From: Bdellovibrionota bacterium
Lineage (GTDB): Bacteria > Bdellovibrionota_C > UBA2361 > JBIKWN01
Direction: 5' to 3'
Assembly: GCA_044356295.1 (NCBI GenBank)
Contig: JBIKWN010000026.1
Span: 1-31,971, forward strand
DNA length: 31,971 nucleotides
The notes beneath the pieces are model-generated. The model had not been told where the DNA came from, made no database searches, and worked only from the letters and a program-made list of their open reading frames with translations. This document shows, piece by piece, positions 11,375 through 31,912 of this stretch. Numbering within the stretch: position 1 is the first letter of the stretch; the number at the start of each line of letters is the position of its first letter. The position numbers were made by a program, and so were the translations under genes.

Positions 11375-11376
11375 AA

Positions 11377-11463: not shown

Positions 11464-11529
11464 GCGTACTTAGGTGTATCTAATTTTATTAATTAAATCA
11501 ACTAGCTCTTTATTAATATGAACAATGTC

Positions 11530-12333: not shown

Positions 12334-12570
12334 ATTCTTTGCCAGTATAGAGGATTCTCTACTAATCCTAAAATAGAGAATAATATACTACACAATGTAT
12401 GCACGTGGTGCAGTGTCTGTGAGCCTCAATAATTGAGTAATACCAGAAAAATTCTTAGAAAAAACCCAGTGAATTCGTAGGCTATTTTTTACTTAGATAC
12501 CACACTTTTCCCCAGTCTTTGTCGATAACATATATAGAGTTTGTTGCTAAACGTGAATCGACGAGTCGTG

Positions 12571-12768
12571 ATGGAAAAAAAAATCAGATTAAATAAGCAA
12601 AAAGGAGCATCACTTGTAGAGTATGCGCTCACTGTAGCTCTTATTTGTGTAGTCTCAATCATATCCATTAATTCTGTAGGTGAATTAGTTACAGAAAGAT
12701 TTGAGTACGTTAATAATGAATTTAATGCAGGCAACTTGCCTCCTGCTCTTATTGACCCTGGTCCCTAA
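12571..12768 (+). CDS. flp: Flp family type IVb pilin
   Basis: Short basic leader, G|ASLVEYAL prepilin cleavage with Glu5-Tyr6, hydrophobic helix. ATG at 12571 preferred over TTG at 12541. Confidence 0.85.
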   Translation: MEKKIRLNKQKGASLVEYALTVALICVVSIISINSVGELVTERFEYVNNEFNAGNLPPALIDPGP

Positions 12769-12778
12769 AATTACTGAT

Positions 12779-15842: not shown

Positions 15843-17699
15843 ATGAGTGGTTTTTTTTCGTTAAAGTCTAACGTCGCTTCACTTAGAGCGCAGCGACAGG
15901 TTGCAAACGCAACTGATAAGCTTTCATCAAGTTATGAAAAGCTTTCTTCTGGATTGCGAATTAACAAAGCAAGCGATGATGCTGCAGGGCTTGCAGTATC
16001 ATCAAAACTCAAAGCAGATACACGAATATTCACACAAGCAGTAAGAAATATTAATGACGGCGCAAGTACCCTTGCAATCGCCAGTGGCGCTGTAGAAAGT
16101 TTATCCAATATCGTAACAAGGCTCCAAGAACTTGCTGAACAATCAGCAAACGGAAGCTACAGTGTCAAGCAGCGCGCTTCTATGGATGCAGAAGCACAAG
16201 CTCTTTCGAAAGAATACTTTCGAGTATCTAGAGCCACTACATTCAACGGAATAAATCTTTTTGATGGAAGCACTCAAGGCGTTTCAATTCAAGCCGGTTA
16301 TGGTACTGGTGGTTCGATATCTTCTTCGCTTGGAGGGATGCTTGGTACTGGGAGTTTTAAGGAGAGAACAACTTTTTCGATGGATGCTGTTGCTTTTTCA
16401 GTGGTCCTTGGAGATGTAAACGGTGACGGCATTCTTGATATGGTGTCAACAGATTTAAATACCAACAGCGCCATAGTTTTTCTTGGAAATGGAGATGGTA
16501 GTTTTAAAGCAAAAATGTCTTTTGCTTTAGGTACGACCGATACATCAGCTATACTTGGCGATCTTAACGGGGATGGTATCCTTGATATTGTGACATCAGG
16601 AGGTAGTAATAATTTCTCGATACTCCTTGGAAATGGAGATGGTAGTTTTAATGCTATGAAATCTTTTGCTTTAGGAAGTGTTGTTAACTCTCTTATCCTA
16701 GGAGATGTCAATGGAGATGGAATTCTTGATGTGCTCACAACGGATTCTATCGATAATACTTTCTCAGTTATGCTTGGAAATGGTAATGGAAGCTTTAAAG
16801 CAAGAACATCAACTCAACTTGGCAATCAGCCTTTATCTATTGCCGCTGGCGATTTAAACGGTGACGGTATTCTTGATATCGTGACAACAGATACATCAGA
16901 TCATAACGCATCAGTACTTCTTGGAAATGGAGATGGTAGTTTTAAAGCTAGAACTTCTATGTCCACAGGGTTCACTCCGGGTTCTGTTGCTCTTGGCGAT
17001 CTGAATGGGGATGGGATACTTGATATTGTAACAGCAGATAGTGATGAATATGCCACTTCAGTTTTTCTTGGTAACGGTAATGGAAGTTTTAAGGCAAGAA
17101 GCTCTTTTAGTACTGGTCCAACGCCTCTTTCTGTGAAACTTGGAGATCTAAATGGTGACGGTGCTCTTGATATTGTAACGGTAAATCAACTTGACAATTC
17201 TACCTCAATTCTTCTTGGAAATGGCAATGGAAGCTTTAAGGCAATGGCTACCTTTCAAATAGGTAGTATCGCTTACGGCTCTGCTCTAGGCGATCTAAAT
17301 GGTGACGGTGTTCTTGATATCGTAATATCTGATAGCGACGATAATACTGCATCTGTATTGCTTGGAACTACCAAAGACGGCATCTCACCAATTCTTCCTT
17401 TTTCACTAAAATCTATCGCAGATGCAAGACAAGCAATGTCAATTTTTTCTAACACTGCAAATAACCTTGGAATTCAAAAAGGAAAACTTGGCGCATTTGA
17501 AAGTAGGCTCTCAGTCGCTGTAAAGGTCGTACAATCAACTGTTTTGGAATACCAGGGAGCATATAGTCGTATCGCTGATGTTGACGTCGCAGAGGAAAGT
17601 TCACGCATAGTCAGCACAAAAATTCTTCAGCAATCAGCTGTTGCTGTTCTTGCTCAGGCTAATCAAAGTCCTGCATTGGTGCTTCAACTACTTGGATGA
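15843..17699 (+). CDS. fliC: Flagellin with an inserted seven-repeat FG-GAP/VCBS beta-propeller domain
   Basis: Flagellin N-domain (EKLSSGLRINKASDDAAGLAV, RLQELAEQSANG, TTFNG) and C-domain (SRIADVDVAEE...LAQANQSPALVLQLLG) flanking seven GD[LV]NGDG.LD repeats. Confidence 0.93.
   Translation: MSGFFSLKSNVASLRAQRQVANATDKLSSSYEKLSSGLRINKASDDAAGLAVSSKLKADTRIFTQAVRNINDGASTLAIASGAVESLSNIVTRLQELAEQSANGSYSVKQRASMDAEAQALSKEYFRVSRATTFNGINLFDGSTQGVSIQAGYGTGGSISSSLGGMLGTGSFKERTTFSMDAVAFSVVLGDVNGDGILDMVSTDLNTNSAIVFLGNGDGSFKAKMSFALGTTDTSAILGDLNGDGILDIVTSGGSNNFSILLGNGDGSFNAMKSFALGSVVNSLILGDVNGDGILDVLTTDSIDNTFSVMLGNGNGSFKARTSTQLGNQPLSIAAGDLNGDGILDIVTTDTSDHNASVLLGNGDGSFKARTSMSTGFTPGSVALGDLNGDGILDIVTADSDEYATSVFLGNGNGSFKARSSFSTGPTPLSVKLGDLNGDGALDIVTVNQLDNSTSILLGNGNGSFKAMATFQIGSIAYGSALGDLNGDGVLDIVISDSDDNTASVLLGTTKDGISPILPFSLKSIADARQAMSIFSNTANNLGIQKGKLGAFESRLSVAVKVVQSTVLEYQGAYSRIADVDVAEESSRIVSTKILQQSAVAVLAQANQSPALVLQLLG
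16341..17366 (+). repeat. Seven coding tandem repeats (~147 bp, 49 aa) of FG-GAP type inside the flagellin
   Basis: Asp codons of DxNGDG at 16413, 16560, 16704, 16851, 16998, 17145 and 17292 (spacings 147, 144, 147, 147, 147, 147). Confidence 0.95.
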
Positions 17700-17805: not shown

Positions 17806-18327
17806 CTAATTCGAATTTAGTGCACATACCGCATGTGCTGTAATAGTTGCGTTAACAGACGTACCAGAAATATTGCGGAATCCACAGAAATAGGAGTAAA
17901 AGCTTGCAGTTTCATCCGGATATCCATAGTAAACTACAAGACGAGAATCTGAGCTTTCACATCCACCGCCGGTTGGTTTTTTGATACCAGAGCAAGTGAC
18001 AAAGACCCCAGTAGTTGCTCCACTTGCAACAGTTACAGTATCTGAACTTTCTTCAAGAACTCTTCCAGAAATACCATTTGAGCCCGCCTGACCTTGAGCT
18101 CCAGTATCACCTTTAGGCCCAGTTGCGCTCGAAGGACCGGTTTCTCCTTTTAATCCGAGCTTGGAAAGCACAGATACACTTGCTTTTTTAAAAGGAGAGA
18201 CGCATTTTGAGGCAATCCTAAAATTTCCTTTCGAATTAACGCAGAGCACTTCCGAGAATGAATCAGATGTAAGATGAAAGAAGAAAAAAGTTGCGAGTAA
18301 ATAAGTTATCGATATTTTCATATTCAT
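17806..18327 (-). CDS. Small secreted protein with a short collagen-like G-X-Y segment and a Cys-containing C-terminal domain
   Basis: Signal peptide, then GLK GET GPS [SAT] GPK GDT GAQ GQA GSN GIS GRV, and CSGIKKPTGGGC...AVCA. Confidence 0.8.
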   Translation of the reverse strand: MNMKISITYLLATFFFFHLTSDSFSEVLCVNSKGNFRIASKCVSPFKKASVSVLSKLGLKGETGPSSATGPKGDTGAQGQAGSNGISGRVLEESSDTVTVASGATTGVFVTCSGIKKPTGGGCESSDSRLVVYYGYPDETASFYSYFCGFRNISGTSVNATITAHAVCALNSN

Positions 18328-18416: not shown

Positions 18417-19766
18417 ATGAGTGGATTAAATAATCGGATAACACTCTCTGCTTTAACTGCTCTTCTATTTTGTCAAGTAAGTGGAGGACCTAATGGTTTA
18501 GAAGAAATTGTACAATCAAGCGGTGCACTTGCTTCGCTTATATTAATCCTGATAACTCCATTTATCTGGGCAATTCCTGCAGCACTTGTTACTGCAGAGA
18601 TGAGTACTGCGATTCCAAAAGAGGGAGGGTATTATCATTGGGTAAAAGATACGTTGGGACCGAAGTGGGGTTTGTTAAGTGCTCTCTGGATGTGGATCTA
18701 CTCTTGGTTTGATTGTGCGTTGTATCCAATTATATTTGCAGAGATAGTTATTCATTCTTCAATTCTTGCTGGATGGTTACCTCAAGAAGCATCCTCTCAC
18801 ATGGAGCTAAGATTTCTTCTGTGTCTCGTGTTAATTGTTCCTTTTACTATAATCAATATCATTGGTGTTAAAAAAGTTGGTCAATGGGCGATTGTTCTAA
18901 CTACGTTAATTTGCATTTCATTTACATTTTTAATTCTCTGTGGACTTTTTAGTTTTTTCAGTAATCCAGTTCCATTAGTTACGGTGCTATTGAATGATGC
19001 CGTTGCTCCAAATTTTATAGATTCATTAGGTGCAGGGCTTTTAATTGTTATGTGGAATTATCTCGGATGGAGTGGGCTTTCAACTATCACTGCTGAGATC
19101 GATAATCCCAAAAAAATATTCCCGAAAGCATTACTGTATTCAATGGTATTAATTATTGCTCTTTATTTTCTTTCTGTCTTTGCTGGACTTCAGGTATATC
19201 CTGATAAAACTAAATGGGAATCTGGCGTTTGGCCCACAATCGGTTATCACGCAGGCGGGAATTTACTTTTTATATTTTTAATTATAACGAGTATCGCCAG
19301 TGCCATGTCTCTTTTTAATGCGCAAGCGCTTGCTGCTTCGCGGATACCGTATGTGCTTGCTCTGGATGGATATTTGCCAAAATGGTTTGCTAAACTGAAT
19401 CCAAAGAGCGAATCACCTGTTCGAGCAATCTGTTTTTGTTCTGTTATTTATTCTCTTCTTTGTTTGAAATCTTTTTCAGAGTTAATAACTTTAGACGTGT
19501 TCTTATTCTCAAGCACATTACTCCTCCAGCACATAAGTTTTGTTGTTTTTAGATTAAAAGACCCAGATAAAGAGCGTCCATTCAAAGTACCTGGTAATTT
19601 TTATGTCATTTGTACTATCGCAGCAGCTCCAATTATTCTAGCTATGGTTGCTACTTTAAATGAGATGCGAGACCCCGACCAATTGAGCAGCGTCATTATC
19701 TCTCTAAGTATCATTATTCTAACGAGTTTGTTTGCATATTTTTCTAGGGGACGCTCACCTTTATAA
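18417..19766 (+). CDS. APC-superfamily amino acid/polyamine permease
   Basis: About 12 hydrophobic segments, VSGGPNGLEE, AEMSTAIPKEGGYYHWV, WNYLGW...AEIDNP and RPFKVP. Confidence 0.9.
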   Translation: MSGLNNRITLSALTALLFCQVSGGPNGLEEIVQSSGALASLILILITPFIWAIPAALVTAEMSTAIPKEGGYYHWVKDTLGPKWGLLSALWMWIYSWFDCALYPIIFAEIVIHSSILAGWLPQEASSHMELRFLLCLVLIVPFTIINIIGVKKVGQWAIVLTTLICISFTFLILCGLFSFFSNPVPLVTVLLNDAVAPNFIDSLGAGLLIVMWNYLGWSGLSTITAEIDNPKKIFPKALLYSMVLIIALYFLSVFAGLQVYPDKTKWESGVWPTIGYHAGGNLLFIFLIITSIASAMSLFNAQALAASRIPYVLALDGYLPKWFAKLNPKSESPVRAICFCSVIYSLLCLKSFSELITLDVFLFSSTLLLQHISFVVFRLKDPDKERPFKVPGNFYVICTIAAAPIILAMVATLNEMRDPDQLSSVIISLSIIILTSLFAYFSRGRSPL

Positions 19767-19830
19767 GTACTTAGATCTAGGTGTCGTGATTATCTATGAT
19801 CAACTAGTTATAAAAGTGAGCGTCCTCTAG
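19744..19830. repeat. REPIN/MITE-like inverted-repeat element, copy 2, overlapping both flanking gene ends
   Basis: CTAGGGGACGCTCACCTTTATAA (19744-19766) pairs with TTATAAAAGTGAGCGTCCTCTAG (19808-19830) at 21/23 positions. 19747-19766 is identical to 17721-17740. Confidence 0.88.
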
Positions 19831-21012
19831 TGATGCTACAAAAGTAGTAAGAAATGCATTAGCCTGCACCCCATCTAAAACCCGATGATCCAAAGTCAGT
19901 GAAACGTATACCATTGGACGAATCACCATCTGATCTTTCCCATCAACCTCTTTAACAATAACTCGTTTCTCTAACTTTCCAATGCCAAGAATCCCCGATT
20001 GTGGTTGATTAATAATGATCGGAGTCGCAATTAAACTTCCAGTCATTCCATGATTGGAAATTGTAAAAGTTCCATCTCGCACTTCTTTTGGATCAAGGGT
20101 TTGTGTTCTAGCTTTTTGAGTGAGCTCTTGAACGAGGGATGCAATTTGAAAAAGATCAAGGTCGGCAGCATTTTTTATAACAGGAACAATAAGTCCACCT
20201 TGTTCAAGTCCTATCGCAAGTCCGATATTGTGAAAAGGAAATAGTTCAAGCGAGTCATCATGCCATCTGCTATTTAATTGAGGAACAGCTTTTAGTGCTT
20301 TAACAGTTGCTTGAATAAAGTAGGGGGTCAGTGTGAGCTTCACACCCTTCTTAGCGAATTCTTCCTTATGAGCATCTCGATGTTTTATTACTTCAGTTAA
20401 GTCACAGTCGAAAACGCTGGTAACGTGCGGAGCAGTGTGCAGCAGACTTTGCACCATATGTGAAGCGATACTTTTTCGCATCTGATTATGCGGGATTCGT
20501 GTTGATTCACCTGCAGCAGTAGTACTCGCAGCTGGTTTATGAGACTGATGAAAGTTCTCAATATCTTCAATAAGTATTCTTCCCCTTGGTCCTGTGCCTT
20601 TAACATCAGTTGCAGAGATTCCTTTTTCTTTAAGGAGTCTTTTTACAGCAGGAGTAAGTTCTAGTGCTGCATCTGTAGATCTAGAAGAATCGTCATTTGA
20701 AGATGCAGATTTTGTTTTACTAGCATTTTTTTCTTTTGATGTAGTTGGAGTACTAGCAGAGGAAGCATCGCTTAGCTGAATTCGACCTAAAATTTCACCA
20801 GGATGAATATCTTCATCAACAACTTTTATTACTTCAATCAGAATGCCCGAAGCAGGTGATGAAATTTCAAGGCTTACTTTGTCAGTTGTCACTTCGATGA
20901 GTGGTTCATGCTCTTTAACATGTTCTCCAACTTTCTTAAGCCAAGTGCTTAAAACAGATTTTGTTCCTTCCTCTTGTTCAGAGGTCATTTTAATTTCAAT
21001 TATCTCAGTCAT
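19804..21012 (-). CDS. Dihydrolipoamide acyltransferase (E2) of a 2-oxoacid dehydrogenase complex
   Basis: One lipoyl domain (EVTTDKVSLEI), peripheral subunit-binding domain (TPAVKRLL...GTGPRGRI) and catalytic DHRVLDG. Confidence 0.95.
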   Translation of the reverse strand: MTEIIEIKMTSEQEEGTKSVLSTWLKKVGEHVKEHEPLIEVTTDKVSLEISSPASGILIEVIKVVDEDIHPGEILGRIQLSDASSASTPTTSKEKNASKTKSASSNDDSSRSTDAALELTPAVKRLLKEKGISATDVKGTGPRGRILIEDIENFHQSHKPAASTTAAGESTRIPHNQMRKSIASHMVQSLLHTAPHVTSVFDCDLTEVIKHRDAHKEEFAKKGVKLTLTPYFIQATVKALKAVPQLNSRWHDDSLELFPFHNIGLAIGLEQGGLIVPVIKNAADLDLFQIASLVQELTQKARTQTLDPKEVRDGTFTISNHGMTGSLIATPIIINQPQSGILGIGKLEKRVIVKEVDGKDQMVIRPMVYVSLTLDHRVLDGVQANAFLTTFVASLEDAHFYN

Positions 21013-21035
21013 AGAAATTTCAGTAACTAAAAAAT

Positions 21036-23141
21036 TTAGAAGTTTAATAAATTTGTAATCTTTTGTGAGATCTGAGAAGTGGAAGGAACAACACTTTCCA
21101 TCATAGGTACATTATAAGGAATAGGGATGTCTTCAACTGCCAATCGATCAACTGGAGCATCAAGGTGTAAGAAACATTCATTCGCAACGACTGCAGCTAT
21201 CTCACCACCAAAACCACATGTCATACCGTCTTCATGAACGATTAAACATCTTCTGGTTTTTTTCACAGATGTAATTACTGATTCTTTATCCCAAGGGCTA
21301 AGCGAACGAAGGTCTATTACTTCAACCTGAGAATCAAACTCTTTTGCAGCTTCTTCACAACGCTCAACCATTGCACCCCAACTAACCACTGTAATCGCAG
21401 ATCCCTCTTTGGTAATAGTTGCTTTACCAAATGGCACAACATAATCATCCCCCGGATACGGTCGCCGTGCCCAAAGCGCATCATACATATGCCTGTGTTC
21501 AAAAAAGATAGTTGGATTATTGCTTCGCATTGCAGATCGAAGAAGCCCAACTGCATCTTGAGCATTGGACGGCATCACAACTTGCCAACCAACGGCATGA
21601 ATCCAAGTCGTTTCACCAGAAACGCTGTGCCATGGATCGCCACATTTTGCAAAACCACCAGCAATTCTGACAACAAGAGGTGCAGCAAATCGGTTTGCTG
21701 TTCTCCAACGCATTGTTCCACAATTATTTAATTGTTCAGTTGCAGGATCTGCATATTTTCTAAACTGAATCTCGACTACTGGCATAAGTCCAGCAACTGC
21801 CATTCCAACTGCGCGTCCCACAATACCTTCTTCAGAAAGGCTTGTATCAAAAACTCGATCTTCTCCAAACTCTTCTTGAAGACCAAGAGTCACTGCATGC
21901 ACTCCACCTTTTGGTCCAATATCTTCACCAAACACTAAAACTTTTGGATTTGTTTTTAGTTCATGAGACAAAGTTTTTCGAATTGCAGTAACGAGGTTAA
22001 TTCTTGTAGGTTCTTCATTCGGAGTAGTAGATGATTTTGGGAAAGTATGTCCCTCATAAAGAAGTCCACCCTGTAATTGTACTTCTACATTGCCATCAGA
22101 ATCTGTTTCAGAGAACTGATATTTTTTTACATCGGCAATTGAAGGATCATTTCTATTAAGTGCTCCTGTAAGTGCAAGATTTACATCATTCGCTGCTTTC
22201 TCACGAAGTGATGACCATTCAGATTCAGATATAACAGCAGGTACAAGATATTTCTCTAATGAGAATATTGGATCTTTATTTTTCTCTTCTTTAATAAGCT
22301 CTTCTTTTTTATAAGCTTGTGTATCTTGCCCAGAATGTCCCGATAGTCTTGGAACAACAAGCCTTACAAGTGCTGGACCAGTTCCACTTCGTACGAAGTC
22401 TGTTGCTTCAGAAAGAATTGCAGAAGTTTCTGCTAAATCAGATCCATTGCCATCAAATATTTTTAGATTTTTAAATGACGCTAAATTGTCTGCAATATTG
22501 CAACCAGGAGTTTGGAAGTGAGAAGGAACAGAGAGCGCATATTGATTATCTTCAATATAAAAAAGCATCGGCAGTTTTAATGTTGTTGCCATGGTAAGTG
22601 CAGACCAAAAACCATTCGTTGCAACTGATCCTTCGCCCCCAAGAACAACAGAGATACATCCTTTAAAATTTTTATCCTTAAGAGTTTGTGATCGATACAC
22701 AATACTCTGTGCCCAACCAGCTGCAGGTGTATATTGAGATCCAACGTCACCCGACATTGGCAAAACTATTGCGCCTTCTTTTTTTGGAAGGTTACAAACA
22801 ACACCGATGTCTCGACCATCACTAAAGCCACCGCTTTTTCCCATCGGTCCAGCAAATGCATCTTCGAAAGATAGTCCAAGTGATAAAAGCAGAGGTCGAG
22901 ATCGATAATAAGCGCTTGCTGAATCACGCTTACCAGTTAGCAAAGATCCAAGTATAATTTGTGGGACATCGTGTCCCCGTGCTGAGAACTGATACAGAAT
23001 TTTTTTTTCAGGAAGTAATTTTGTTTCTTCAACTGCATCAATTGCCCGTGAAGCAAAGACCAGATAGGCGACTTTTTTCCAGTCAATTTGAGGATTCAAT
23101 CCTAAAGAATCTGCTACTTGGCTCATTGCTGCTACACCCAT
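21036..23141 (-). CDS. Fused E1 alpha/beta TPP-dependent 2-oxoacid dehydrogenase (branched-chain/aromatic type)
   Basis: SARGHD, TPP motif variant GEG...EDN, RLSGHS, and beta-part motifs FGEDIG, DTSLSEEGIVG, WHS and EVIDLRSL. Confidence 0.92.
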   Translation of the reverse strand: MGVAAMSQVADSLGLNPQIDWKKVAYLVFASRAIDAVEETKLLPEKKILYQFSARGHDVPQIILGSLLTGKRDSASAYYRSRPLLLSLGLSFEDAFAGPMGKSGGFSDGRDIGVVCNLPKKEGAIVLPMSGDVGSQYTPAAGWAQSIVYRSQTLKDKNFKGCISVVLGGEGSVATNGFWSALTMATTLKLPMLFYIEDNQYALSVPSHFQTPGCNIADNLASFKNLKIFDGNGSDLAETSAILSEATDFVRSGTGPALVRLVVPRLSGHSGQDTQAYKKEELIKEEKNKDPIFSLEKYLVPAVISESEWSSLREKAANDVNLALTGALNRNDPSIADVKKYQFSETDSDGNVEVQLQGGLLYEGHTFPKSSTTPNEEPTRINLVTAIRKTLSHELKTNPKVLVFGEDIGPKGGVHAVTLGLQEEFGEDRVFDTSLSEEGIVGRAVGMAVAGLMPVVEIQFRKYADPATEQLNNCGTMRWRTANRFAAPLVVRIAGGFAKCGDPWHSVSGETTWIHAVGWQVVMPSNAQDAVGLLRSAMRSNNPTIFFEHRHMYDALWARRPYPGDDYVVPFGKATITKEGSAITVVSWGAMVERCEEAAKEFDSQVEVIDLRSLSPWDKESVITSVKKTRRCLIVHEDGMTCGFGGEIAAVVANECFLHLDAPVDRLAVEDIPIPYNVPMMESVVPSTSQISQKITNLLNF

Positions 23142-23398
23142 AAAATGCCTCTAGAGTTACTATACTTTGAAGACACCCTTGTCTCATTAAGAGCGAGTAA
23201 ATGTCAAATCAAAAGTTCTTCAATGAATTGATATCATTAGGTTTTTCCGATGCATTTCAATTCATTTAATGATAGAAAGAGTTGTTCAAAAAATTGCTGC
23301 TACGGTTGCTACTGATAACTACTCGGAATTCTTCCTTGATTTGGTACTTTCGTGGTAAAGAACTCATGCAAAACAATTAACAATCAAGAGAAATACTT

Positions 23399-24187
23399 GT
23401 GTCTGAATTTAAAAATATTCTGTGTGAAGCTTCTGAAGGTGTTTTAGAGATAACACTCAATCGACCTGATGTCCTCAATAGTTTTAATCGAGAGATGTCA
23501 TCTGAATTACAGATTGCTCTCGATCAATCAAAATCAAAAAATATTCGAGCAGTGCTTTTAACTGGGAAAGGAAGAGGCTTTTGTGCAGGGCAAGATCTTT
23601 CAGATGTAATACCTAAAGAAGGTGAGACAACAGAGTTAGGAAAAATAGTTGAAAGTTGTTACAACCCAATTATTCTAAAAATTCGGTCAATTGAGAAACC
23701 ATTTATTTGTGCAGTAAATGGAATTGCTGCCGGGGCAGGTGCTAACTTAGCACTTGCTTGTGATATTGTTTTTGCAGCATCCACTGCATCGTTTGTGCAG
23801 TCATTTTCAAAAGTAGGGCTTGTGCCTGATAGCGGAGGGACATTTTTTCTTCCACGACTTATTGGTTTTGCACGTGCAACTGCCCTTACGATGTTGGCAG
23901 AGAAAATTACAGCGGAAGAAGCACTAAGAATTGGAATGATTTATAAAGTGGTGTCAAGCGAAGCGCTGTTAGACGAGGCAAAAAGTATTGCCAAGTATTT
24001 AGCAACGCAACCTACAAAAGGGTTAGGACTTATTAAGCGAGGATTGAATCGATCGCTTTCAAATTCACTTGAAGACCAATTGCTCTTAGAAAGAGATCTA
24101 CAGGATGAGGCAGGTAAAAGTTTAGACTATGCTGAAGGCGTAAAAGCATTTGTAGAAAAACGCGCCCCACAATTTAAAGGTGAGTAA
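23399..24187 (+). CDS. paaG: Ring-1,2-epoxyphenylacetyl-CoA isomerase (crotonase fold)
   Basis: LNRPDVLNSFN, FCAGQDL, AAGAGANLALACD and GLVPDSGG (catalytic Asp of PaaG); paa cluster context. Confidence 0.88.
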   Translation: MSEFKNILCEASEGVLEITLNRPDVLNSFNREMSSELQIALDQSKSKNIRAVLLTGKGRGFCAGQDLSDVIPKEGETTELGKIVESCYNPIILKIRSIEKPFICAVNGIAAGAGANLALACDIVFAASTASFVQSFSKVGLVPDSGGTFFLPRLIGFARATALTMLAEKITAEEALRIGMIYKVVSSEALLDEAKSIAKYLATQPTKGLGLIKRGLNRSLSNSLEDQLLLERDLQDEAGKSLDYAEGVKAFVEKRAPQFKGE

Positions 24188-24188
24188 C

Positions 24189-25373
24189 ATGAAGTTAGAT
24201 TCTACAACAATTGTTGGAGTTATTGGTGCAGGTACGATGGGGCGGGGGATTGCTCAGGTTGCAGCAAGTAATGGGCATCAAGTGATTATTTCAGATGCTA
24301 ACGAAGTAACCCTTAGTAACTGTAAAAAAAGTCTGAGTGAAACATTTGAAAAATTAATCGCAAAGAAAAAAATTAGTAAAGAAGAATCTGAACAGATCCT
24401 TTCTAGGATATCGTATGCAACAAATTTAGAATCACATGCTACGTGTGGGATAATTATTGAAGCAATTATCGAAGATCTTGGAATTAAAAAACAGCTCTTT
24501 ACCTCTTTAGAAGCTATCGTCAAAGACACATGTGTTCTTGCAACTAATACGTCGTCTCTTTCGATTGCGTCGCTTTCAGCTGCTTGTAAGAAAAAAGAGC
24601 GAGTTATTGGAATTCATTTTTTCAACCCAGCGCCGCTGATGGCACTTGTCGAGATTGTTCCGTCATTGTTAACAAATCAAACTATTACTGAGTCAGTTGT
24701 TGAACTTATTTCATCTTGGAATAAAAAAACAGTTCTAGCAAAAGATACACCTGGTTTTATTGTTAATCGCATTGCGAGACCGTATTACGGTGAAGCGCTC
24801 AGAATATACGAAGAATCAATCGGTTCATTTCAAGAAATTGATGCTGCAATGAAACAACTCGGTTCGTTTCGAATGGGTCCTTTTGAGCTCATGGATTTTA
24901 TTGGCAATGATATAAACTTAAGTGTTACAGAGACTGTCTTTAAAGAGTTCTTCTTTGATCCTCGGTATAAGCCCTCGTTTACTCAGAAAAGAAATGTTGA
25001 AGCTGGGCTTTTAGGCAGAAAGACTGGAAGAGGTTTCTATAATTATACTGATTCAAATGTAAATGAAGTCTCGCAAAATATTAGTTTTGATAAAGAGCGA
25101 GGGGAGATAATTTTTCTCAGGATCCTAGCTATGCTTATTAATGAAGCAGCCGACGCATTATATCTTGGAATAGCTTCGAGAGATGATATTGATTCCGCAA
25201 TGACGCTAGGAGTGAACTATCCAAAGGGATTACTTCGTTGGTGTGATGAAGTTGGTCTTGATACGATCGTAGGAGTGCTCGATGCACTTTACGAGGATTA
25301 CCGAGAAGATAGATACCGCGCAAGTGTATTGCTTCGAAGGAAAGCAAAAGAGAAATCTAATTTCTATTCGTAA
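24189..25373 (+). CDS. paaH: 3-hydroxyadipyl-CoA (3-hydroxyacyl-CoA) dehydrogenase
   Basis: GVIGAGTMG Rossmann motif, NTSSLS, HFFNP, PGFIVNR, duplicated C-domain. ATG at 24189 follows an SD-like AAGGTGAG. Confidence 0.88.
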   Translation: MKLDSTTIVGVIGAGTMGRGIAQVAASNGHQVIISDANEVTLSNCKKSLSETFEKLIAKKKISKEESEQILSRISYATNLESHATCGIIIEAIIEDLGIKKQLFTSLEAIVKDTCVLATNTSSLSIASLSAACKKKERVIGIHFFNPAPLMALVEIVPSLLTNQTITESVVELISSWNKKTVLAKDTPGFIVNRIARPYYGEALRIYEESIGSFQEIDAAMKQLGSFRMGPFELMDFIGNDINLSVTETVFKEFFFDPRYKPSFTQKRNVEAGLLGRKTGRGFYNYTDSNVNEVSQNISFDKERGEIIFLRILAMLINEAADALYLGIASRDDIDSAMTLGVNYPKGLLRWCDEVGLDTIVGVLDALYEDYREDRYRASVLLRRKAKEKSNFYS

Positions 25374-25395
25374 ATTTATTGAGGAGTATTCGAAC

Positions 25396-26607
25396 GTGAA
25401 TAAAAGTTTTATTATAGATGGTATTAGAACTCCGATTGGAAATCATGGAGGATCTCTATCACCGATTCGAGCCGATGACATGGCAGCTCTTGTTATAAAA
25501 GAGCTTATCAAGCGAAATCCATCAGTACCGACTTCAAAGATAACAGATGTTATTTTCGGATCTGCAAACCAAGCTGGAGAAGATAATAGAAACGTTGCAC
25601 GTATGGCGGCACTTCTTGCAGGGCTTCCTGTCGAAATTCCAGGTGAAACTGTAAATAGATTGTGTGCTTCTGGAATGAGCGCGGTCATCAATGCTGATAG
25701 ATCGATTAAACTAAGTCAAGCAGATTTTATGATCGCAGGTGGTGTTGAAAGTATGACACGGGCGCCGTATGTACTTTCAAAAACTGCAACTCCTTTTGGT
25801 CGTGATGCTGAGCTTTTTGATACCAGTATCGGTTGGCGTTTTGTAAACCCACTGATGAAAGAAATGTACGGTACTGATTCCATGGGTGAAACAGCTGAAA
25901 ATGTTGCAGCTCAGTTCTCGGTTTCTAGAGCTGACCAGGATCAGTTTGCAATGCAATCCCAAATGAAAGCATCTGCGGCACTAAAACGGGGAAGGTTTGA
26001 ACGAGAAATTGTTTCTGTTGAAATCCCAAAAAAGAAAGGTGAAGTACTACATTTTTCTGCTGATGAATTTATTCGCTCAGGAACAACTCTTGAAACCTTA
26101 TCAAAATTAAAACCTGCATTTCGAAAAGATGGATCCGTAACTGCCGGAAATTCATCAGGTATCAATGACGGTGCATGCGCACTGCTTCTTGCGAGTGATA
26201 CAGCAGTAACGTCATTGAAACTTAATCCACTAGGAAAAATTATCTCTTCGGCTGTTGTTGGAGTTCAACCAAATATTATGGGGATAGGTCCAGTAGCTGC
26301 ATCTGAAAAAGCATTAAAAATTGCGGGACTTACCATCAAAGATATAAATATTATTGAACTTAATGAAGCTTTTGCCGCACAAGGTATTGCCTGCTTAAGG
26401 TCACTTGGACTTTCACAAGACGATGAACGAGTAAATCCAAACGGAGGCGCAATTGCTCTTGGGCATCCACTAGGAATGTCTGGAGCACGATTAATCTTAA
26501 CTGCGCTTCATGAACTCAAAGAGCGAAATCAAAAATATGCTTTGTGCACAATGTGTATCGGTGTTGGGCAAGGAATGGCTTGTGTTGTTGAGAATAGCAA
26601 TGGGTAA
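25396..26607 (+). CDS. paaJ: 3-oxoadipyl-CoA/3-oxo-5,6-dehydrosuberyl-CoA thiolase (PaaJ/PcaF type)
   Basis: NQAGEDNRNVARM, NRLCASG, NEAFA, GHPLGMSG and CIGVGQG. GTG start at 25396 follows GAGGAG. Confidence 0.9.
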   Translation: MNKSFIIDGIRTPIGNHGGSLSPIRADDMAALVIKELIKRNPSVPTSKITDVIFGSANQAGEDNRNVARMAALLAGLPVEIPGETVNRLCASGMSAVINADRSIKLSQADFMIAGGVESMTRAPYVLSKTATPFGRDAELFDTSIGWRFVNPLMKEMYGTDSMGETAENVAAQFSVSRADQDQFAMQSQMKASAALKRGRFEREIVSVEIPKKKGEVLHFSADEFIRSGTTLETLSKLKPAFRKDGSVTAGNSSGINDGACALLLASDTAVTSLKLNPLGKIISSAVVGVQPNIMGIGPVAASEKALKIAGLTIKDINIIELNEAFAAQGIACLRSLGLSQDDERVNPNGGAIALGHPLGMSGARLILTALHELKERNQKYALCTMCIGVGQGMACVVENSNG

Positions 26608-27217
26608 TATTTTTGAATTCAACGGTTTTCAGCCAGTAATTCACGAAAGCTCTTTTATTCATCCCAATGCAACTGTTGTGGGTAATGTTGTAATTGGAAA
26701 AGATGTTTATGTCGGACCAGGAGCAACAATTCGTGGAGATTGGGGAGAGATCATTATTGAAGATGGTTGCAATATTCAAGAATCTTGCACAATACATATG
26801 TTTCCAGGTTTGACTGTCACACTGAAGCAATCAGCACATATTGGGCACGGTGCTGTTATTCATGGAGCCACAATCGGAAAAAATTCCCTTGTTGGTATGA
26901 ATGCTGTAGTCATGGATAATGTTGTTGTCGGTGATGAGTGCATCATCGGTGCTCTTTGTTTTGTACCTGCAGAGATGATAATTCCAAATAGAAAAGTTGT
27001 TGTTGGAAATCCCGCGAAAGTTGTTAAAGATGTAACCGATGAGATGCTTGATTGGAAAACTGAAGGGACAAAACTCTATCAATCACTTCCAGAATCACTA
27101 CGACAAACACTAAAAGAATGTGAACCACTCAGGGAAATCCCAAAAGATCGCAAAAAAATGGCTTCAGATTATAAGCCGTGGAAAACAATTGGAAAAGAAA
27201 ATAAGAGTCAGGAATAA
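26600..27217 (+). CDS. paaY: PaaY-like hexapeptide-repeat (gamma-carbonic-anhydrase fold) protein
   Basis: Hexapeptide repeats, RGDWG, NIQE..H and HIGHGAVIHG. ATG at 26600 overlaps the thiolase end. Confidence 0.85.
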   Translation: MGNIFEFNGFQPVIHESSFIHPNATVVGNVVIGKDVYVGPGATIRGDWGEIIIEDGCNIQESCTIHMFPGLTVTLKQSAHIGHGAVIHGATIGKNSLVGMNAVVMDNVVVGDECIIGALCFVPAEMIIPNRKVVVGNPAKVVKDVTDEMLDWKTEGTKLYQSLPESLRQTLKECEPLREIPKDRKKMASDYKPWKTIGKENKSQE

Positions 27218-27223
27218 AAAACT

Positions 27224-29266
27224 ATGAAACCACAAAGTTACGCACAAGGTGAATGGCATACTGGAAGTGGCAAAAGCATGCCGTTGTTCAATGCGGTCAC
27301 AGGAGACGCAATCGGCGAAGTCATTAGTGGAGGACTCGATTATCAAGGGATGCTCCATTATGCACGCACTGTTGGTGGAGCTGCACTGAGAAAGATGACT
27401 TTTCATGATCGTGCCAGACTCTTAAAAAAACTTGCACTCTATCTTATGGAGCAAAAAGATCAGTTCTATAAGATCTCTGCATTTACCGGTGCCACAAAAG
27501 CAGATTCATGGATTGATATTGAAGGCGGTATCGGTGTTCTTTTTACATATGCAAGTCGTGGACGTAGAGATTTTCCAAATGAAACAGCATATGTTGATGG
27601 TGCACTAGAGAATCTTTCTAAAACTGGAAGCTTTGTTGGGCTTCATGTGTGTACTCCGATGTTAGGGGCAGCGCTTCATATCAATGCATTTAATTTTCCG
27701 GTCTGGGGGATGCTTGAAAAAATTGCTGCTAACCTTATTGCCGGAGTCCCTGCAATTGTAAAACCTGCAACAGTGACCTGTTATTTAGCAGAAGCAGTTT
27801 TTAAAAGTATGATTGAATCAAAGATATTTCCTGAAGGTTCTCTGCAACTTATTTCAGGAAGTGCTGGTGACATATTTGATCATTTAGGATGCGAAGATAT
27901 CGTGACCTTTACTGGCTCAGCAGAAACAGGCAAAAAATTAAAAAGCCATCCAGGAATAGTAAATAATTCTATTCGATTCAATATGGAAGCTGATTCACTC
28001 AACTGTTCTATTCTTGGAAGTGATGTGACTCCAGATAGTGAAGAGTTTGAGATTTTTATTAAAGAAGTTGCACGCGAAATGACAGTGAAAGCTGGACAGA
28101 AATGTACTGCTATTAGACGTACAATTGTACCAGCATCTTTAGTCGAACCAGTAACAGCAGCACTCAAGAAAAGATTAAGCCAAGTAAAGATTGGAGATCC
28201 CCAAGCAGAAGGGGTCCGCATGGGCCCACTTGCTGGATTGGATCAGTTAAAAGAAGTTAGAGCAAAAATTTCAGAGATTCAAAGCGGTGCACAAATCTTA
28301 CTAGGCGCAGAAATAGATTTTGAAGTTATAGGCGCCGACAGGAATAAAGGTGCTTTCATATCACCAACTTTACTTTACTGCGATAAACCTTTTTCAAAAC
28401 TTCAACCGCATAACATTGAAGCGTTTGGTCCGGTTAATACAATTTTGCCGTATGCTACAGTGGATGAGGCAATTGAATTGGCTCAGATGGGTAAAGGCAG
28501 CCTTGTAGGGTCGTTAGTAACAGGGGACGACACTATCGCTAAAAAAGTTGCTCTCGGTGTTGCTCCGTATCACGGACGCTTAGTTATTCTAAATAAAGAG
28601 TGTACAAAAGAATCAACTGGACACGGATCCCCACTTCCACAGCTTGTTCACGGTGGACCAGGCAGAGCCGGCGGTGGAGAAGAAATGGGTGGAGCAAGAG
28701 CAGTTATGCATTACATGCAACGAACGGCACTGCAAGGATCACCGACAACCCTTGGAAAAGTTTGTAACGAATGGCTTAAAGGTGGTGTCGAGCTTCGCGA
28801 AAAAATTCATCCATTCAGAAAACATTTCGAAGAGCTACAAATTGGTGAAACCCTTATAACTGAAAAAAGAATAATTACAGAAGAAGATATCTTAAAATTT
28901 GCAGCACTCAGTGGCGATCATTTCTATGCCCATATGGAAGATTCAATCTCTAAAGAATCTATTTTTGGTCAACGAGTTGCGCATGGTTATTTTATTGTTT
29001 CTGCAGCAGCGGGGCTTTTTGTAGATCCTGCTCCTGGGCCTGTTCTTGCAAATTATGGTTTAGAAGGGCTTCGCTTTACTAAGCCTGTTTTTGTGAACGA
29101 TTCAATCTGTGTTCGATTGACCTGTAAAAAGAAGACTGCAAAGGATCCAAGAGAAGGCGAAATTCCGCAGGGAGTTGTTGAATGGGATGTCGAAGTTAAG
29201 AATCAAAATGATGAAGTTGTTGCTGTATATAGTATCTTAACATTAGTGAAGAGATTGGTTCATTAA
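27224..29266 (+). CDS. paaZ: Bifunctional oxepin-CoA hydrolase / aldehyde dehydrogenase PaaZ
   Basis: ALDH domain (HINAFNFPVWGMLEK, EADSLN, GQKCTAIRR) fused to a MaoC hydratase domain (SGDHFYAH, VAHGY). Confidence 0.96.
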   Translation: MKPQSYAQGEWHTGSGKSMPLFNAVTGDAIGEVISGGLDYQGMLHYARTVGGAALRKMTFHDRARLLKKLALYLMEQKDQFYKISAFTGATKADSWIDIEGGIGVLFTYASRGRRDFPNETAYVDGALENLSKTGSFVGLHVCTPMLGAALHINAFNFPVWGMLEKIAANLIAGVPAIVKPATVTCYLAEAVFKSMIESKIFPEGSLQLISGSAGDIFDHLGCEDIVTFTGSAETGKKLKSHPGIVNNSIRFNMEADSLNCSILGSDVTPDSEEFEIFIKEVAREMTVKAGQKCTAIRRTIVPASLVEPVTAALKKRLSQVKIGDPQAEGVRMGPLAGLDQLKEVRAKISEIQSGAQILLGAEIDFEVIGADRNKGAFISPTLLYCDKPFSKLQPHNIEAFGPVNTILPYATVDEAIELAQMGKGSLVGSLVTGDDTIAKKVALGVAPYHGRLVILNKECTKESTGHGSPLPQLVHGGPGRAGGGEEMGGARAVMHYMQRTALQGSPTTLGKVCNEWLKGGVELREKIHPFRKHFEELQIGETLITEKRIITEEDILKFAALSGDHFYAHMEDSISKESIFGQRVAHGYFIVSAAAGLFVDPAPGPVLANYGLEGLRFTKPVFVNDSICVRLTCKKKTAKDPREGEIPQGVVEWDVEVKNQNDEVVAVYSILTLVKRLVH

Positions 29267-29325
29267 ATGATGATTAAATACAATAGATTAAGATTCAGTA
29301 TGAGTTTTTTCGATAATTTTTTAAG

Positions 29326-29354
29326 TTGATGTCCTTCCCTATGGTTAGTACAAT
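29326..29354 (+). promoter_or_regulatory. Internal sigma70 promoter for paaABCD
   Basis: TTGATG-N17-TACAAT in the 129-bp paaZ-paaA gap. Confidence 0.6.
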
Positions 29355-29395
29355 TGAAGTAACTGATTCGAAAAGTAAAGAGTCATAGGTATATT

Positions 29396-30346
29396 ATGGA
29401 AGAACAATCACAATTAGATAATTTTGAAAAACGGATTGCTTCTGGTGAAGTAATAGAGCCTAAAGATTGGATGCCTGAAGCCTATAAAAAGCAACTTATC
29501 CGAATGATGTCCCAACATGCGCACTCTGAAATTGTAGGAATGCTTCCGGAAGGAGAATGGATTACTCGTGCTCCATCGCTTCGCAGAAAAAAAATCCTTA
29601 TTGCAAAAGTTCAAGATGAAGCAGGGCATGGGCTCTATATTTATAGTGGTGTAGAAACCCTGGGTTCTGACAGAGATCAATCAACTCGCGACTTGCTCGC
29701 TGGCAAAGCCAAGTATTCAAGTATTTTTAATTATCCAACTTTATCATGGGCTGATATCGGTGTTATCGGATGGTTCGTTGATGGTGCGGCAATTGTAAAC
29801 CAAACAATGCTTGCCAAGTGTTCATACGGTCCCTATGCACGTGCGATGGTAAGAATTTGCAAAGAAGAAAATTTTCATAAAAAGCAGGGCTATGAATTAA
29901 TTACTGCCCTCATGAACGGAACCGCTGAGCAAAAAGCAATGGCGCAAGATGCAGTCAACAGATGGTGGTGGCCATCATTAATGATGTTTGGACCAAGTGA
30001 TAAGGATTCCCCTAACACGCCACAGCTTTTAAGGTGGCAGATTAAGAAAAAAGGCAACGACGAGTTAAGGCAGCGATTTGTTGATTTAACTATTCCTCAA
30101 GCAAATGCAATTGGGATTACTCTTCCTGATCCTGATCTGAAATATAACGCAGAGCGTAAATCTTGGGATTTTGGTCAGATTAATTGGGATGAATTTAATA
30201 AAGTTGTACGAGGCGACGGTCCTTGTAATAAAGACCGTATACGAACACGGCAAGAAGCCTATGATAATGGTGCTTGGGTACGTGAAGCTGCTCTAGCCTT
30301 CGCCCAGAAACATGAAAATCAAAGGGACGTTCAACATGTCAACTAA
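29396..30346 (+). CDS. paaA: Phenylacetyl-CoA epoxidase catalytic diiron subunit
   Basis: [20 protein letters not shown], diiron motifs DEAGH and EENFH, and RWWWP. Confidence 0.97.
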
Positions 30347-30641
30347 TACTTCTGAAATAAGTAGTGAATGGCAGTTATGGGAAGTCTTTGTTCAAAGTGA
30401 ATATGGTGCTGCCCATGAGCATTTTGGATCAGTAAGGGCACCTGATAGAGAACTAGCACTTCAAAATGCACGAGACCTGTATGCTCGCAGGGGGACGGTT
30501 CTTAGTATGTGGGTTGTTCCTTCTAATGCTATTACAGCAAGTACACCTTCCGAGAATGGGATTTTTTTTGATCCATCAAATGATAAGCCGTACCGCAGCA
30601 CTCAATTTTATACAATTCCTCGAGGAGTGAAGGGCTTGTGA
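30336..30641 (+). CDS. paaB: Phenylacetyl-CoA epoxidase subunit B
   Basis: WEVFV, H.GSVRAPD.ELAL.NARDLY.RR and DKPYR. ATG at 30336 preferred. Confidence 0.93.
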
Positions 30642-31411
30642 TAGATAATTCAGCAGTATTTAAATATCTATTAAGATTAGGGGATGACAGGCTAGTCCTT
30701 GGGCAGCGTATTTCAGAATGGTGTGGTCATGGTCCAGTGCTTGAAGAAGATATTGCTCTTTCAAACATTGCTCTTGATCTGATTGGACAAGCGAGTTCCT
30801 TTTTAACATTAGCCGGAACTTTAGAAGCAAAGGGTAGAACCGAAGACGACCTTGCTTTTCACCGAGACTCGAGCCAGTTTTCTAATCTTCAATTAGTCGA
30901 ACAACCACGTGGTGATTTTGCAGAAACTATTGCAAAGCTTTTTCTTTTTAGCTCATTCTCCTTATTATTTTTTAAACATCTTAGTGCCTCGAAACATCCA
31001 GAAATTGCTTCACTAGCAGAAAAAGCAGGGAAGGAATACCAGTATCATCTTCGTCACAGTTCTGAGTGGATAGTACGGCTTGGTGATGGTACTGAAGAGA
31101 GTCATAAACGAATTCAAAATGCATTGAACCACTACTGGCAATTTTGTTCTGAATTATTTTATATGGATGAAATTGACGAAAAACTAATTCTTGAGGGTAT
31201 TGCCCCTGATATCAGTGCACTAAAAATAGAATGGACCTCTTCAATCAATCAAGTCTTAACACGTGCAACGCTGTCTGAAACTCCAAAAGATATCTTTTCA
31301 GAATCGCAACAAAAAAGAGAAGGAAGAAAAGGTATTCACACAGAATACCTACAAGAGATGCTCTCTGTAATGCAAGTACTTCCCAGAACATATCCAGATG
31401 CTCGTTGGTAA
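30638..31411 (+). CDS. paaC: Phenylacetyl-CoA epoxidase structural subunit C
   Basis: LGDDRLVLGQRISEWCGHGPVLEEDIA and WIVRLGDGTEESH. Confidence 0.95.
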   Translation: MIDNSAVFKYLLRLGDDRLVLGQRISEWCGHGPVLEEDIALSNIALDLIGQASSFLTLAGTLEAKGRTEDDLAFHRDSSQFSNLQLVEQPRGDFAETIAKLFLFSSFSLLFFKHLSASKHPEIASLAEKAGKEYQYHLRHSSEWIVRLGDGTEESHKRIQNALNHYWQFCSELFYMDEIDEKLILEGIAPDISALKIEWTSSINQVLTRATLSETPKDIFSESQQKREGRKGIHTEYLQEMLSVMQVLPRTYPDARW

Positions 31412-31420
31412 TGTCATCAT

Positions 31421-31912
31421 ATGATACCTACCGTTGAATCAATTTTTGAAATCTTACATGAAGTAAAAGATCCCGAGATTCCAGTCATAGATTGTATTGA
31501 ACTTGGTATTATCCGTAACGTTAAGATAATTGAAGATAAAGTTATTGTTGATATCACTCCAACCTATTCAGGATGCCCTGCAATGAAAGAGATTGAAGAT
31601 GATGTGAAAGCAACACTTCATAGGCATGGATTTGTGAATTCACAGGTAAACTTAGTATTTTCTCCGGCATGGACAACTGATTGGATTACAGAATCAGGTA
31701 AACAGAAATTAAAAGAGTATGGTATTGCTCCTCCTAAAAAAGTAAGTGATGAACCACAAAAATTATTTCAAATTGGTAAAAAAAATACCCAATGCCCATT
31801 TTGTAATTCAATGAGTACTGTTCTGAAGAGTGAATTTAGTTCAACTGCTTGCAAGGCGCTCCATTACTGTAACTCTTGTCAGCAGCCGTTTGAGAGGTTT
31901 AAGAGTCTCTAA
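31421..31912 (+). CDS. paaD: Phenylacetyl-CoA epoxidase maturation subunit D (DUF59 + Zn ribbon)
   Basis: DPEIP, TPTYSGCPA, PAWTTDW, CPFC...STACKA...CNSC..PF..FK. Confidence 0.95.
   Translation: MIPTVESIFEILHEVKDPEIPVIDCIELGIIRNVKIIEDKVIVDITPTYSGCPAMKEIEDDVKATLHRHGFVNSQVNLVFSPAWTTDWITESGKQKLKEYGIAPPKKVSDEPQKLFQIGKKNTQCPFCNSMSTVLKSEFSSTACKALHYCNSCQQPFERFKSL

Follow-up and report, generated by a model that had tools for sequence, protein, structure and literature searches.

A fused E1 alpha-beta protein and an E2 protein, encoded next to each other on a contig of a Bdellovibrionota bacterium, probably form the core of a dedicated phenylpyruvate dehydrogenase complex that feeds the phenylacetyl-CoA degradation (Paa) pathway. 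The assignment is drawn from genomic context. The window analysed is the whole contig C123, 31,971 bp in length, of a metagenome-assembled genome (MAG) with 128 contigs, 2.96 Mb and a completeness of 93.6 %. On the minus strand it carries the genes for the E2 dihydrolipoyl acyltransferase (19804..21012, 402 amino acids) and for the fused E1 (21036..23141, 701 amino acids), and a divergent intergenic region of 257 bp (23142..23398) separates the E1 gene from a plus-strand cluster in the order paaG-H-J-Y-Z-A-B-C-D. A sequence-only reading of the window had noticed this head-to-head arrangement together with the lack of paaK, the gene of phenylacetate-CoA ligase, and of a gene for E3, the dihydrolipoyl dehydrogenase. 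Both observations held: Pfam and NCBIfam models detected no CoA ligase and no dihydrolipoyl dehydrogenase among the other large open reading frames (ORFs) of the window. The further proposal of that reading, a direct conversion of phenylpyruvate into phenylacetyl-CoA by the complex, is supported by genomic context, namely the linkage to paa genes, the co-occurrence with the epoxidase subunit PaaA (28/28 versus 0/96 genomes), the absence of PaaK and the separate clade formed by the E1 proteins. As far as our searches reach, this is a real, conserved and undescribed module, with strong genomic evidence for its predicted role at the entry into the Paa pathway.

Co-occurrence and linkage with paa genes in the Bdellovibrionota

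The phylum sample comprised 124 genomes, in which E1 orthologues were accepted at E <= 1e-150 and PaaA at the model cut-off. PaaA exceeded this cut-off in 28 genomes; 27 of these had an E1 orthologue with 58-71 % identity, and the 28th (G006) contained a partial E1 piece of 66 % identity at a contig edge. All 96 PaaA-negative genomes lacked an E1 orthologue; they include two other genomes of the genus represented by the window (62 % and 86 % complete). The pairing of E1 and PaaA also holds in families of mixed gene content (1/7, 2/7, 4/5, 4/5 and 1/3 genomes), therefore the two were not simply inherited as one block, with the limit that kin genomes are not independent observations. PaaK was missing from all 28 PaaA-positive genomes. 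PaaK-like genes occurred in four of the 124 genomes with 456-525 bits, none over the cut-off of 646 bits and none in a PaaA-positive genome.

Within the order, nine other genomes of several families contained E1 orthologues with 62-69 % identity. Seven of them, which represent other families, share with the window the divergent orientation of E1-E2 and paaG-H-J(-Y-Z). The two exceptions have PaaA on the same contig at a distance of 17 kb (G010) or on another contig (G039). Together with paa genes at 21 of 34 loci in other lineages, a gene-neighbourhood comparison of the E1 homologues, which the sequence-only reading had suggested as a check, revealed a conserved linkage. At the G010 locus without an adjacent paaG (L045:11105-14386), a gene for an M29 aminopeptidase is located directly upstream on the same strand and a gene of the flavin amine-oxidase family lies nearby.

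Supply of phenylacetyl-CoA in the window genome

The correlation of the complex with a lack of paaK, which the sequence-only reading had suggested as a further check, was found throughout the phylum (28/28), while it was only partial in other lineages, as described below. For the window genome, the search was extended to all 128 contigs. The PaaK model TIGR02155 had no match at E <= 0.001 in this assembly, and two PaaK proteins taken from other loci gave no match by tblastn either. A paaK gene located just beyond the window would have explained the flux into the pathway; PaaK was absent from the assembly and, within the phylum, from the 27 other genomes with PaaA. The contig stops 59 bp past paaD, and a contig-end artefact hiding paaK or paaE was considered and rejected, because neither gene was present in the rest of the assembly nor in the relatives. 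Genes following paaD in the relatives are unrelated and variable, they are not paaE or paaK, hence the cluster is not visibly truncated. Ferredoxin-type 2-oxoacid oxidoreductases, another potential source of the thioester, were searched for by their POR/IOR domain (PF01558) without a match in the window genome. An AspC/TyrB-like aminotransferase, an amino-acid dehydrogenase and a 4-hydroxyphenylpyruvate dioxygenase are encoded elsewhere in this genome.

For PaaE, the best match to TIGR02160 in the window genome had 43.9 bits (cut-off 420.8), and five relatives with a completeness of 92-95 % (G010, G013, G021, G029 and G036) had no match over the cut-off. The scan of these six genomes yielded only matches of 29-63 bits to FNR-like frames of approximately 260 amino acids, several of which have internal stops in the relatives. 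A dihydrolipoyl dehydrogenase (Lpd) over the cut-off (554.3 bits) is encoded on contig C6, upstream of LipB and of a paralogous fused E1. This Lpd is an E3 candidate that might be shared with the paa-linked complex. The C6 stretch (11002-15001) contains Lpd, a nitroreductase-like gene, LipB and the paralogous E1 gene running off the contig end, while contig C7 (1-2154) starts with the tail of an E1 beta part, and an E2 gene comes next. The two contigs probably join, which would give a second fused-E1 complex with an E3 of its own.

Orthologues in other lineages

A scan of the genome collection detected 34 orthologue loci with 52-70 % identity (L051 repeats G007) in Gemmatimonadaceae, Allosphingosinicella, Sphingosinicella, Enterovirga, Thioclava, Cognatishimia, Maritalea, Calditrichota, Chloroflexota and further Bdellovibrionales. 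The 21 loci with paa genes include 15 of the 17 with complete flanks of 10 kb (not L059 and L065). Five genomes with an orthologue locus lacking paa genes were searched for PaaA, which was encoded elsewhere in four of them. The gene orders vary between the lineages. Gemmatimonadaceae have paaG-paaH-E1-E2 in one direction, the Calditrichota locus has no adjacent E2, and in Thioclava an AsnC/Lrp gene is divergent from E1-E2-paaJ-paaABCD-paaE-...-paaZ on one strand, in a genome in which PaaK was not found. Cognatishimia presents E1-E2-Lpd, an AsnC/Lrp gene, paaJ-ABCDE, a TetR gene and paaK. In Allosphingosinicella and Sphingosinicella, an AsnC/Lrp and an aminotransferase gene are situated directly 5' of E1-E2 at nearly every locus with upstream DNA. 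The aminotransferase of A. vermicomposti scored 492.7 bits with the model NF006719 'aromatic amino acid transaminase' (cut-off 377). A stretch between E2 and paaJ in a Thioclava MAG (L079:13323-13616) has 63 % identity to the Cognatishimia Lpd and belongs to a long ORF that includes paaJ as well; this stretch may be the remnant of an E3 gene formerly present in the operon.

PaaK was not found in eight of ten carrier genomes searched; Sphingosinicella sp. GR2756 and Cognatishimia possess it, and paaK was also observed at the loci L063 and L078. A second order, that of A. vermicomposti (G041), was studied with a sample of 151 genomes. PaaA was present in 11 of the 13 E1 carriers versus 46 of the 138 non-carriers. 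Among the PaaA-positive genomes, PaaK was missing in 6 of 11 carriers and in 6 of 46 non-carriers (Fisher's p = 0.007, a value overstated by the kinship of the genomes). The complex is therefore tied to the Paa pathway in this order and enriched where PaaK is missing. With PaaK in five of the eleven PaaA-positive carriers and in Cognatishimia, the strict correlation with paaK absence seen in the Bdellovibrionota did not extend to these lineages, and the complex is not simply a replacement of PaaK. A coexistence is as expected if the complex serves phenylalanine and PaaK serves free phenylacetate.

Bacillaceae operon with split subunits

E1 proteins with split subunits formed a clade of their own (6 rows; support of 100 in the SH-like approximate likelihood ratio test, SH-aLRT), with paa genes within 10 kb at five of six loci. 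The operon was observed in Bacillus salacetis (L126:8548-15656), B. timonensis (L091:8509-15951) and Exiguobacterium undae (L127:8385-14222), with the order amino-acid dehydrogenase of the Glu/Leu/Phe family, E1-alpha, E1-beta, E2 and Lpd. The dehydrogenase has its best match to the tryptophan dehydrogenase ScyB (344-378 bits, under the cut-off), the E1-alpha scores over the cut-off as pyruvate dehydrogenase (PDH) E1-alpha, and in two loci a gene for 4-hydroxyphenylpyruvate dioxygenase follows the operon, which adjoins paaX or paaK/paaA. It may be an independent parallel of the proposed phenylpyruvate entry.

Phylogeny and protein features of E1 and E2

The tree of the E1 beta domain was calculated from 100 rows, with three alpha-only matches excluded. 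The paa-linked fused E1 proteins, among them the E1 of the window, formed one clade of 41 rows (SH-aLRT support 100) on a stem 1.51 changes per column long. The comparison with other E1 proteins that had been called for thus placed them in a separate, long-stemmed group. A second fused E1 type of the Bdellovibrionota, grouped in another clade (10 rows, support 99), occurs in relatives both with and without paa genes; in the window genome, this paralogue has its own E2, Lpd and LipB. The two fused clades join with a support of 91, the branches are long and the join is unsure. Split E1-beta proteins were placed elsewhere in the tree, and the loci L083-L128 (31-44 % identity), initially listed as fused homologues, were rejected as ordinary split E1 alpha and beta genes; five of them, in Bacillaceae, are the loci near paa genes described above. 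In other classes, the carrier genomes encode two or three additional split E1-alpha genes as well as SucA, therefore the complex is an extra one in these organisms.

The E1 protein consists of E1_dh (PF00676, residues 48-330, 100.1 bits), Transket_pyr (PF02779, residues 381-553, 105 bits) and Transketolase_C (PF02780, residues 572-687, 114.8 bits), all over the cut-offs. It has the domain set of a heterotetramer-type 2-oxoacid dehydrogenase E1, here fused into a single protein; an alternative ATG is present five codons downstream, at residue 6. The motifs are GGEGS at residue 168, EDNQY at 197, SGHS at 267, FGEDIG at 404 and PWHS at 503, so that the motif for thiamine pyrophosphate (TPP) and magnesium, of the form G-[DE]-G...N, and the motifs of the catalytic histidine and glutamate are retained. 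The alpha part was aligned with 99 other E1 alpha parts. The E2 protein has a layout of a lipoyl domain (Biotin_lipoyl, PF00364, residues 15-78), a peripheral subunit-binding domain for E3 or E1 (E3_binding, PF02817, 120-152) and a catalytic domain (2-oxoacid_dh, PF00198, 168-398, E 9e-70), each over its Pfam cut-off. The sequences TDKV at residue 43 and DHRVLDG at 375 are the lipoyl-lysine motif and the catalytic DHRxxDG motif.

No equivalog model for the named branched-chain 2-oxoacid or pyruvate dehydrogenase families reached its cut-off. The best E1 matches were to NF006667 (242 bits, cut-off 321) and TIGR03181 (118 bits, cut-off 411), and E2 remained under the cut-offs of all NCBIfam E2 equivalogs, the best being NF004309 (286 bits, cut-off 449). 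The beta half scored approximately 240 bits against solved E1-beta chains of PDH and branched-chain 2-oxoacid dehydrogenase (BCKDH), while the similarity of the alpha half to solved E1-alpha chains is only weak (62-72 bits). The TPP segment of the clade reads ATNGFW...EDN versus [SQ]xGDF[HY]E...NN in the other E1 proteins compared. The sequence-only reading had drawn attention to a GEG variant in the TPP motif. The variant is present, but it is not distinctive because the orthologue clade itself has GEG, GDG and GDA in alternation and the paralogous fused E1 proteins have GEG too; as a marker of substrate specificity it was rejected.

Proposed function and alternative explanations

The Paa pathway has no 2-oxoacid intermediate, yet a 2-oxoacid dehydrogenase is co-inherited and co-located with its genes. 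Most simply, this is explained by a function as entry enzyme, and phenylpyruvate would be the one common 2-oxoacid that gives phenylacetyl-CoA on oxidative decarboxylation. Phenylalanine, probably taken up or originating from digested protein, would be transaminated or deaminated to phenylpyruvate. E1 would decarboxylate phenylpyruvate on TPP and reductively acylate the lipoyl-lysine of E2, which would pass the phenylacetyl group to CoA, while an E3 encoded elsewhere, with the candidate on C6 beside the paralogous complex, would reoxidise the lipoamide with NAD+. Phenylacetyl-CoA would enter the pathway at PaaABC(D) and proceed via PaaG, PaaZ, PaaJ and PaaH, and free phenylacetate as well as the ATP-dependent ligase PaaK would be bypassed. 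The route from phenylalanine via phenylpyruvate fits to the aminotransferase and Lrp-type genes upstream of E1-E2 in Allosphingosinicella and Sphingosinicella, to the E3 gene in one operon and to the absence of PaaK and of IOR-type enzymes from the window genome. Substrate, product, the shared E3 and the physiological role are all inferred from these patterns. With a smaller margin of confidence, though still tending to the affirmative, we consider the lipoamide- and NAD-dependent complex as a third, undescribed entry into the Paa pathway next to PaaK and the ferredoxin oxidoreductases, which would be the sole entry in PaaK-less lineages and would have arisen at least twice, in the fused clade and in the split operon of the Bacillaceae.

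Several observations weigh against this assignment. Close homologues are publicly annotated as 2-oxoisovalerate dehydrogenase E1 component or as pyruvate dehydrogenase. An Lrp-type regulator and an aminotransferase next to E1/E2 are typical of branched-chain (bkd) operons as well, and the subfamily model NF006719 extends to AspC/TyrB enzymes of broad specificity. In the Bdellovibrionota, E1-E2 has neither an aminotransferase nor an E3 gene beside it. The most divergent copy, in the Chloroflexota genome G137, has no adjacent E2 in a genome without PaaA, and PaaA was likewise not detected in the carriers G164 and G185 of the second order. PaaK and the complex coexist in five of eleven PaaA-positive carriers of that order, in Cognatishimia and at the loci L063 and L078. 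Finally, PaaE was not found in the Bdellovibrionota genomes searched, so that Paa activity in these organisms is itself a prediction.

The public names, the beta half being most like the BCKDH and PDH E1-beta chains (about 240 bits) and the gene context resembling bkd operons would suit an ordinary branched-chain 2-oxoacid or pyruvate dehydrogenase, adjacent to paa genes by shared regulation or by shared enzymes of beta-oxidation type. Such an enzyme is rather unlikely in view of the distribution of E1, which in the phylum sample is present in all 28 PaaA-positive genomes and missing from the 96 PaaA-negative ones. Relatives have the second fused E1 type, in the window genome complete with E2, Lpd and LipB, irrespective of paa genes, and carrier genomes of other classes encode two or three more split E1 in addition to SucA. 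The long, fully supported stem of the clade and its own signature in the TPP site argue in the same direction, and no NCBIfam equivalog cut-off for PDH or 2-oxoglutarate dehydrogenase was reached. A somewhat larger, but still small probability is given to a different or broader set of 2-oxoacids, such as 4-hydroxyphenylpyruvate, indolepyruvate or longer phenyl-substituted compounds, with phenylpyruvate as one or as a minor substrate. The linkage data fit any substrate that ends as phenylacetyl-CoA or a close analogue, the adjacent transaminase belongs to a broad family, and the analogous Bacillaceae operon ends with a gene for 4-hydroxyphenylpyruvate dioxygenase. However, the co-occurrence is specifically with PaaA, the accessible passages of two studies describe the epoxidase pathway for phenylacetyl-CoA (PMC7497051, PMC13186573), and phenylpyruvate would be the one common 2-oxoacid yielding this thioester.

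The precedents in print that were found for a conversion of phenylpyruvate to phenylacetyl-CoA avoiding free phenylacetate are biosynthetic only: in the parts of the publications available, PglB/PglC (PMC7089894) and the precursors of tropodithietic acid and roseobacticide in Phaeobacter (PMC7497051). They would be in line with another role tied to the pathway, regulatory, detoxifying or anabolic, for instance the provision of phenylacetyl-CoA for a secondary metabolite. We regard this as very improbable, as the window and its relatives have the full catabolic set, including paaZ with an aldehyde dehydrogenase domain, paaJ and paaH, and biosynthetic genes were not present in the annotated flanks. 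A phenylpyruvate dehydrogenase complex feeding the Paa pathway is thus the preferred explanation.

Relation to known systems

With BCKDH, including the fused form named 2-oxoisovalerate dehydrogenase E1 component, the complex shares the domain set of E1, the layout of E2 and the conserved TPP/Mg and catalytic His/Glu motifs. It differs by the separate clade with a long stem, by the weak similarity of the alpha half and by the ATNGFW...EDN segment; in contrast to BCKDH, it tracks PaaA rather than general amino-acid catabolism, and the operon of the Bdellovibrionota has no E3. For PglB/PglC of Streptomyces pristinaespiralis, PDH-like E1 alpha and beta proteins, the conversion of phenylpyruvate to phenylacetyl-CoA has been proposed as a step in phenylglycine biosynthesis, according to the passages accessible (PMC7089894). 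The proposed reaction via a 2-oxoacid dehydrogenase E1 is the same, in a comparison by description only. PglB and PglC are separate subunits of an antibiotic biosynthesis operon, for which the passages list no E2 of its own, whereas E1 is fused here, has its own E2 and is found in a catabolic paa context.

Enzymes of the type indolepyruvate or phenylpyruvate ferredoxin oxidoreductase (IOR/PPFOR) form arylacetyl-CoA and CO2 from arylpyruvate and CoA, as reported or proposed for Pyrococcus and Desulfococcus in the sections of the source at hand (PMC5109826). The net step is the same and free phenylacetate is bypassed, but the enzymes belong to an unrelated family and use ferredoxin, not lipoamide and NAD+. 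In Phaeobacter, phenylalanine reaches phenylacetyl-CoA via phenylpyruvate, and the passages seen name no enzyme for this step (PMC7497051). PaaK delivers the same thioester to PaaABC(D)E, but from free phenylacetate and ATP. A survey of paa clusters from 2026 anchors on paaK; phenylpyruvate, oxoacid and pyruvate dehydrogenase are unmentioned in the passages searched (PMC13186573). A catabolic phenylpyruvate dehydrogenase complex was not described in the literature searched, a coverage that left out most subscription journals and supplements.

The paa cluster, the intergenic region and neighbouring genes

The gene map of the window was obtained from the ORF listing and scans with Pfam and NCBIfam models. 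The epoxidase subunits PaaA, PaaB, PaaC and PaaD together with PaaG, PaaZ, PaaJ and PaaH identify a Paa cluster, and each of these eight reaches some curated cut-off; the paaY-like gene alone does not. All genes of the cluster are on the plus strand. The gene paaG (23399..24187) codes for a 1,2-epoxyphenylacetyl-CoA isomerase (TIGR02280, 363.6 bits, cut-off 345.15) and is followed by a paaH-type 3-hydroxyacyl-CoA dehydrogenase in a short form (24180..25373; NF006124, 513.8 bits, cut-off 508), which is under the cut-off of the PaaH equivalog TIGR02279 (447 versus 669 bits). The 3-oxoadipyl-CoA thiolase gene paaJ (25282..26607) was recognized by NF006551 (632.5 bits, cut-off 605) and TIGR02430 (625.5 bits, cut-off 597); its start is uncertain, as the ATG at 25282 overlaps paaH and the thiolase domain begins at residue 40 of the ORF. 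Some relatives have genes for PaaI-type thioesterases between paaH and paaJ, which are not present in the window. The paaY-like gene for a hexapeptide-repeat protein (26600..27217; TIGR02287, 237.4 bits, under the cut-off of 319.6) has an ORF opening at 26510, with the ATG at 26600 as the likely start. The bifunctional oxepin-CoA hydrolase / aldehyde dehydrogenase PaaZ (27224..29266; TIGR02278, 977.9 bits, cut-off 562.8) is followed by the catalytic subunit of the epoxidase, PaaA (29396..30346; TIGR02156, 514.5 bits, cut-off 280), and by PaaB (30312..30641, alternative ATG at 30336; TIGR02157, 111.3 bits, cut-off 85.45), PaaC (30638..31411; TIGR02158, 284.7 bits, cut-off 133.35) and PaaD (31421..31912; TIGR02159, 184.1 bits, cut-off 108.15).

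The divergent region contains a 16-nt imperfect inverted repeat (23219-23234 / 23254-23269) with 88 % complementarity and a distance of 19 nt, which could be an operator. Nothing comparable was detected in the intergenic regions of seven relatives, and a conserved operator was rejected on this ground. Promoter-like sites were no commoner in the intergenic region than in shuffled sequence.

Convergent with the E2 gene lies a gene for an amino acid permease of the APC family (18417..19766, plus strand; Pfam AA_permease_2, E 1.9e-46; all NCBIfam matches under their cut-offs). It was not found beside E1 in the loci of the relatives, so this neighbour is not conserved; a function as amino-acid uptake partner is possible. 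The rest of the window carries, besides this permease, sucCD, a FliG-like gene, a protease, dksA, clpB, a TonB receptor, queF and PBP1 as well as an unusual flagellin and a collagen-repeat protein. The flagellin (618 amino acids; 15843-17699, plus strand) has normal N- and C-terminal helical regions, between which FG-GAP / beta-propeller repeats follow one another (PF13517, 238 bits, 7 stretches). The collagen-like triple-helix repeat in an ORF of 173 amino acids (17806-18327, minus strand) is short, with weak matches under the cut-offs. The region 19804-25373 was almost wholly present in one lake water metagenome run (X2; 0.83 of the sampled words), and a second run containing it (X1) may be the source of the assembly. 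An RNA run was not among the 19 runs listed for this region.

Significance for the Paa pathway

If the proposed function is true, the complex would fill a gap in the sampled paa-carrying Bdellovibrionota, several Alphaproteobacteria and Gemmatimonadota, which have the Paa ring-opening without a source of its substrate. A large clade of environmental proteins labelled 2-oxoisovalerate or pyruvate dehydrogenase would be re-annotated, and surveys of the Paa pathway anchored on paaK would miss such clusters. In comparison to PaaK, the reaction would save two ATP equivalents and gain one NADH, a route that would suit organisms living on protein-derived amino acids. PaaK-less carriers should grow on phenylalanine, not on phenylacetate, and this is directly testable with the cultured carriers Allosphingosinicella vermicomposti KCTC 22446 and Enterovirga sp. 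CPCC 101701. In PaaK-less lineages, among them the Bdellovibrionota with paa genes, the Paa pathway would then serve phenylalanine and not phenylacetate.

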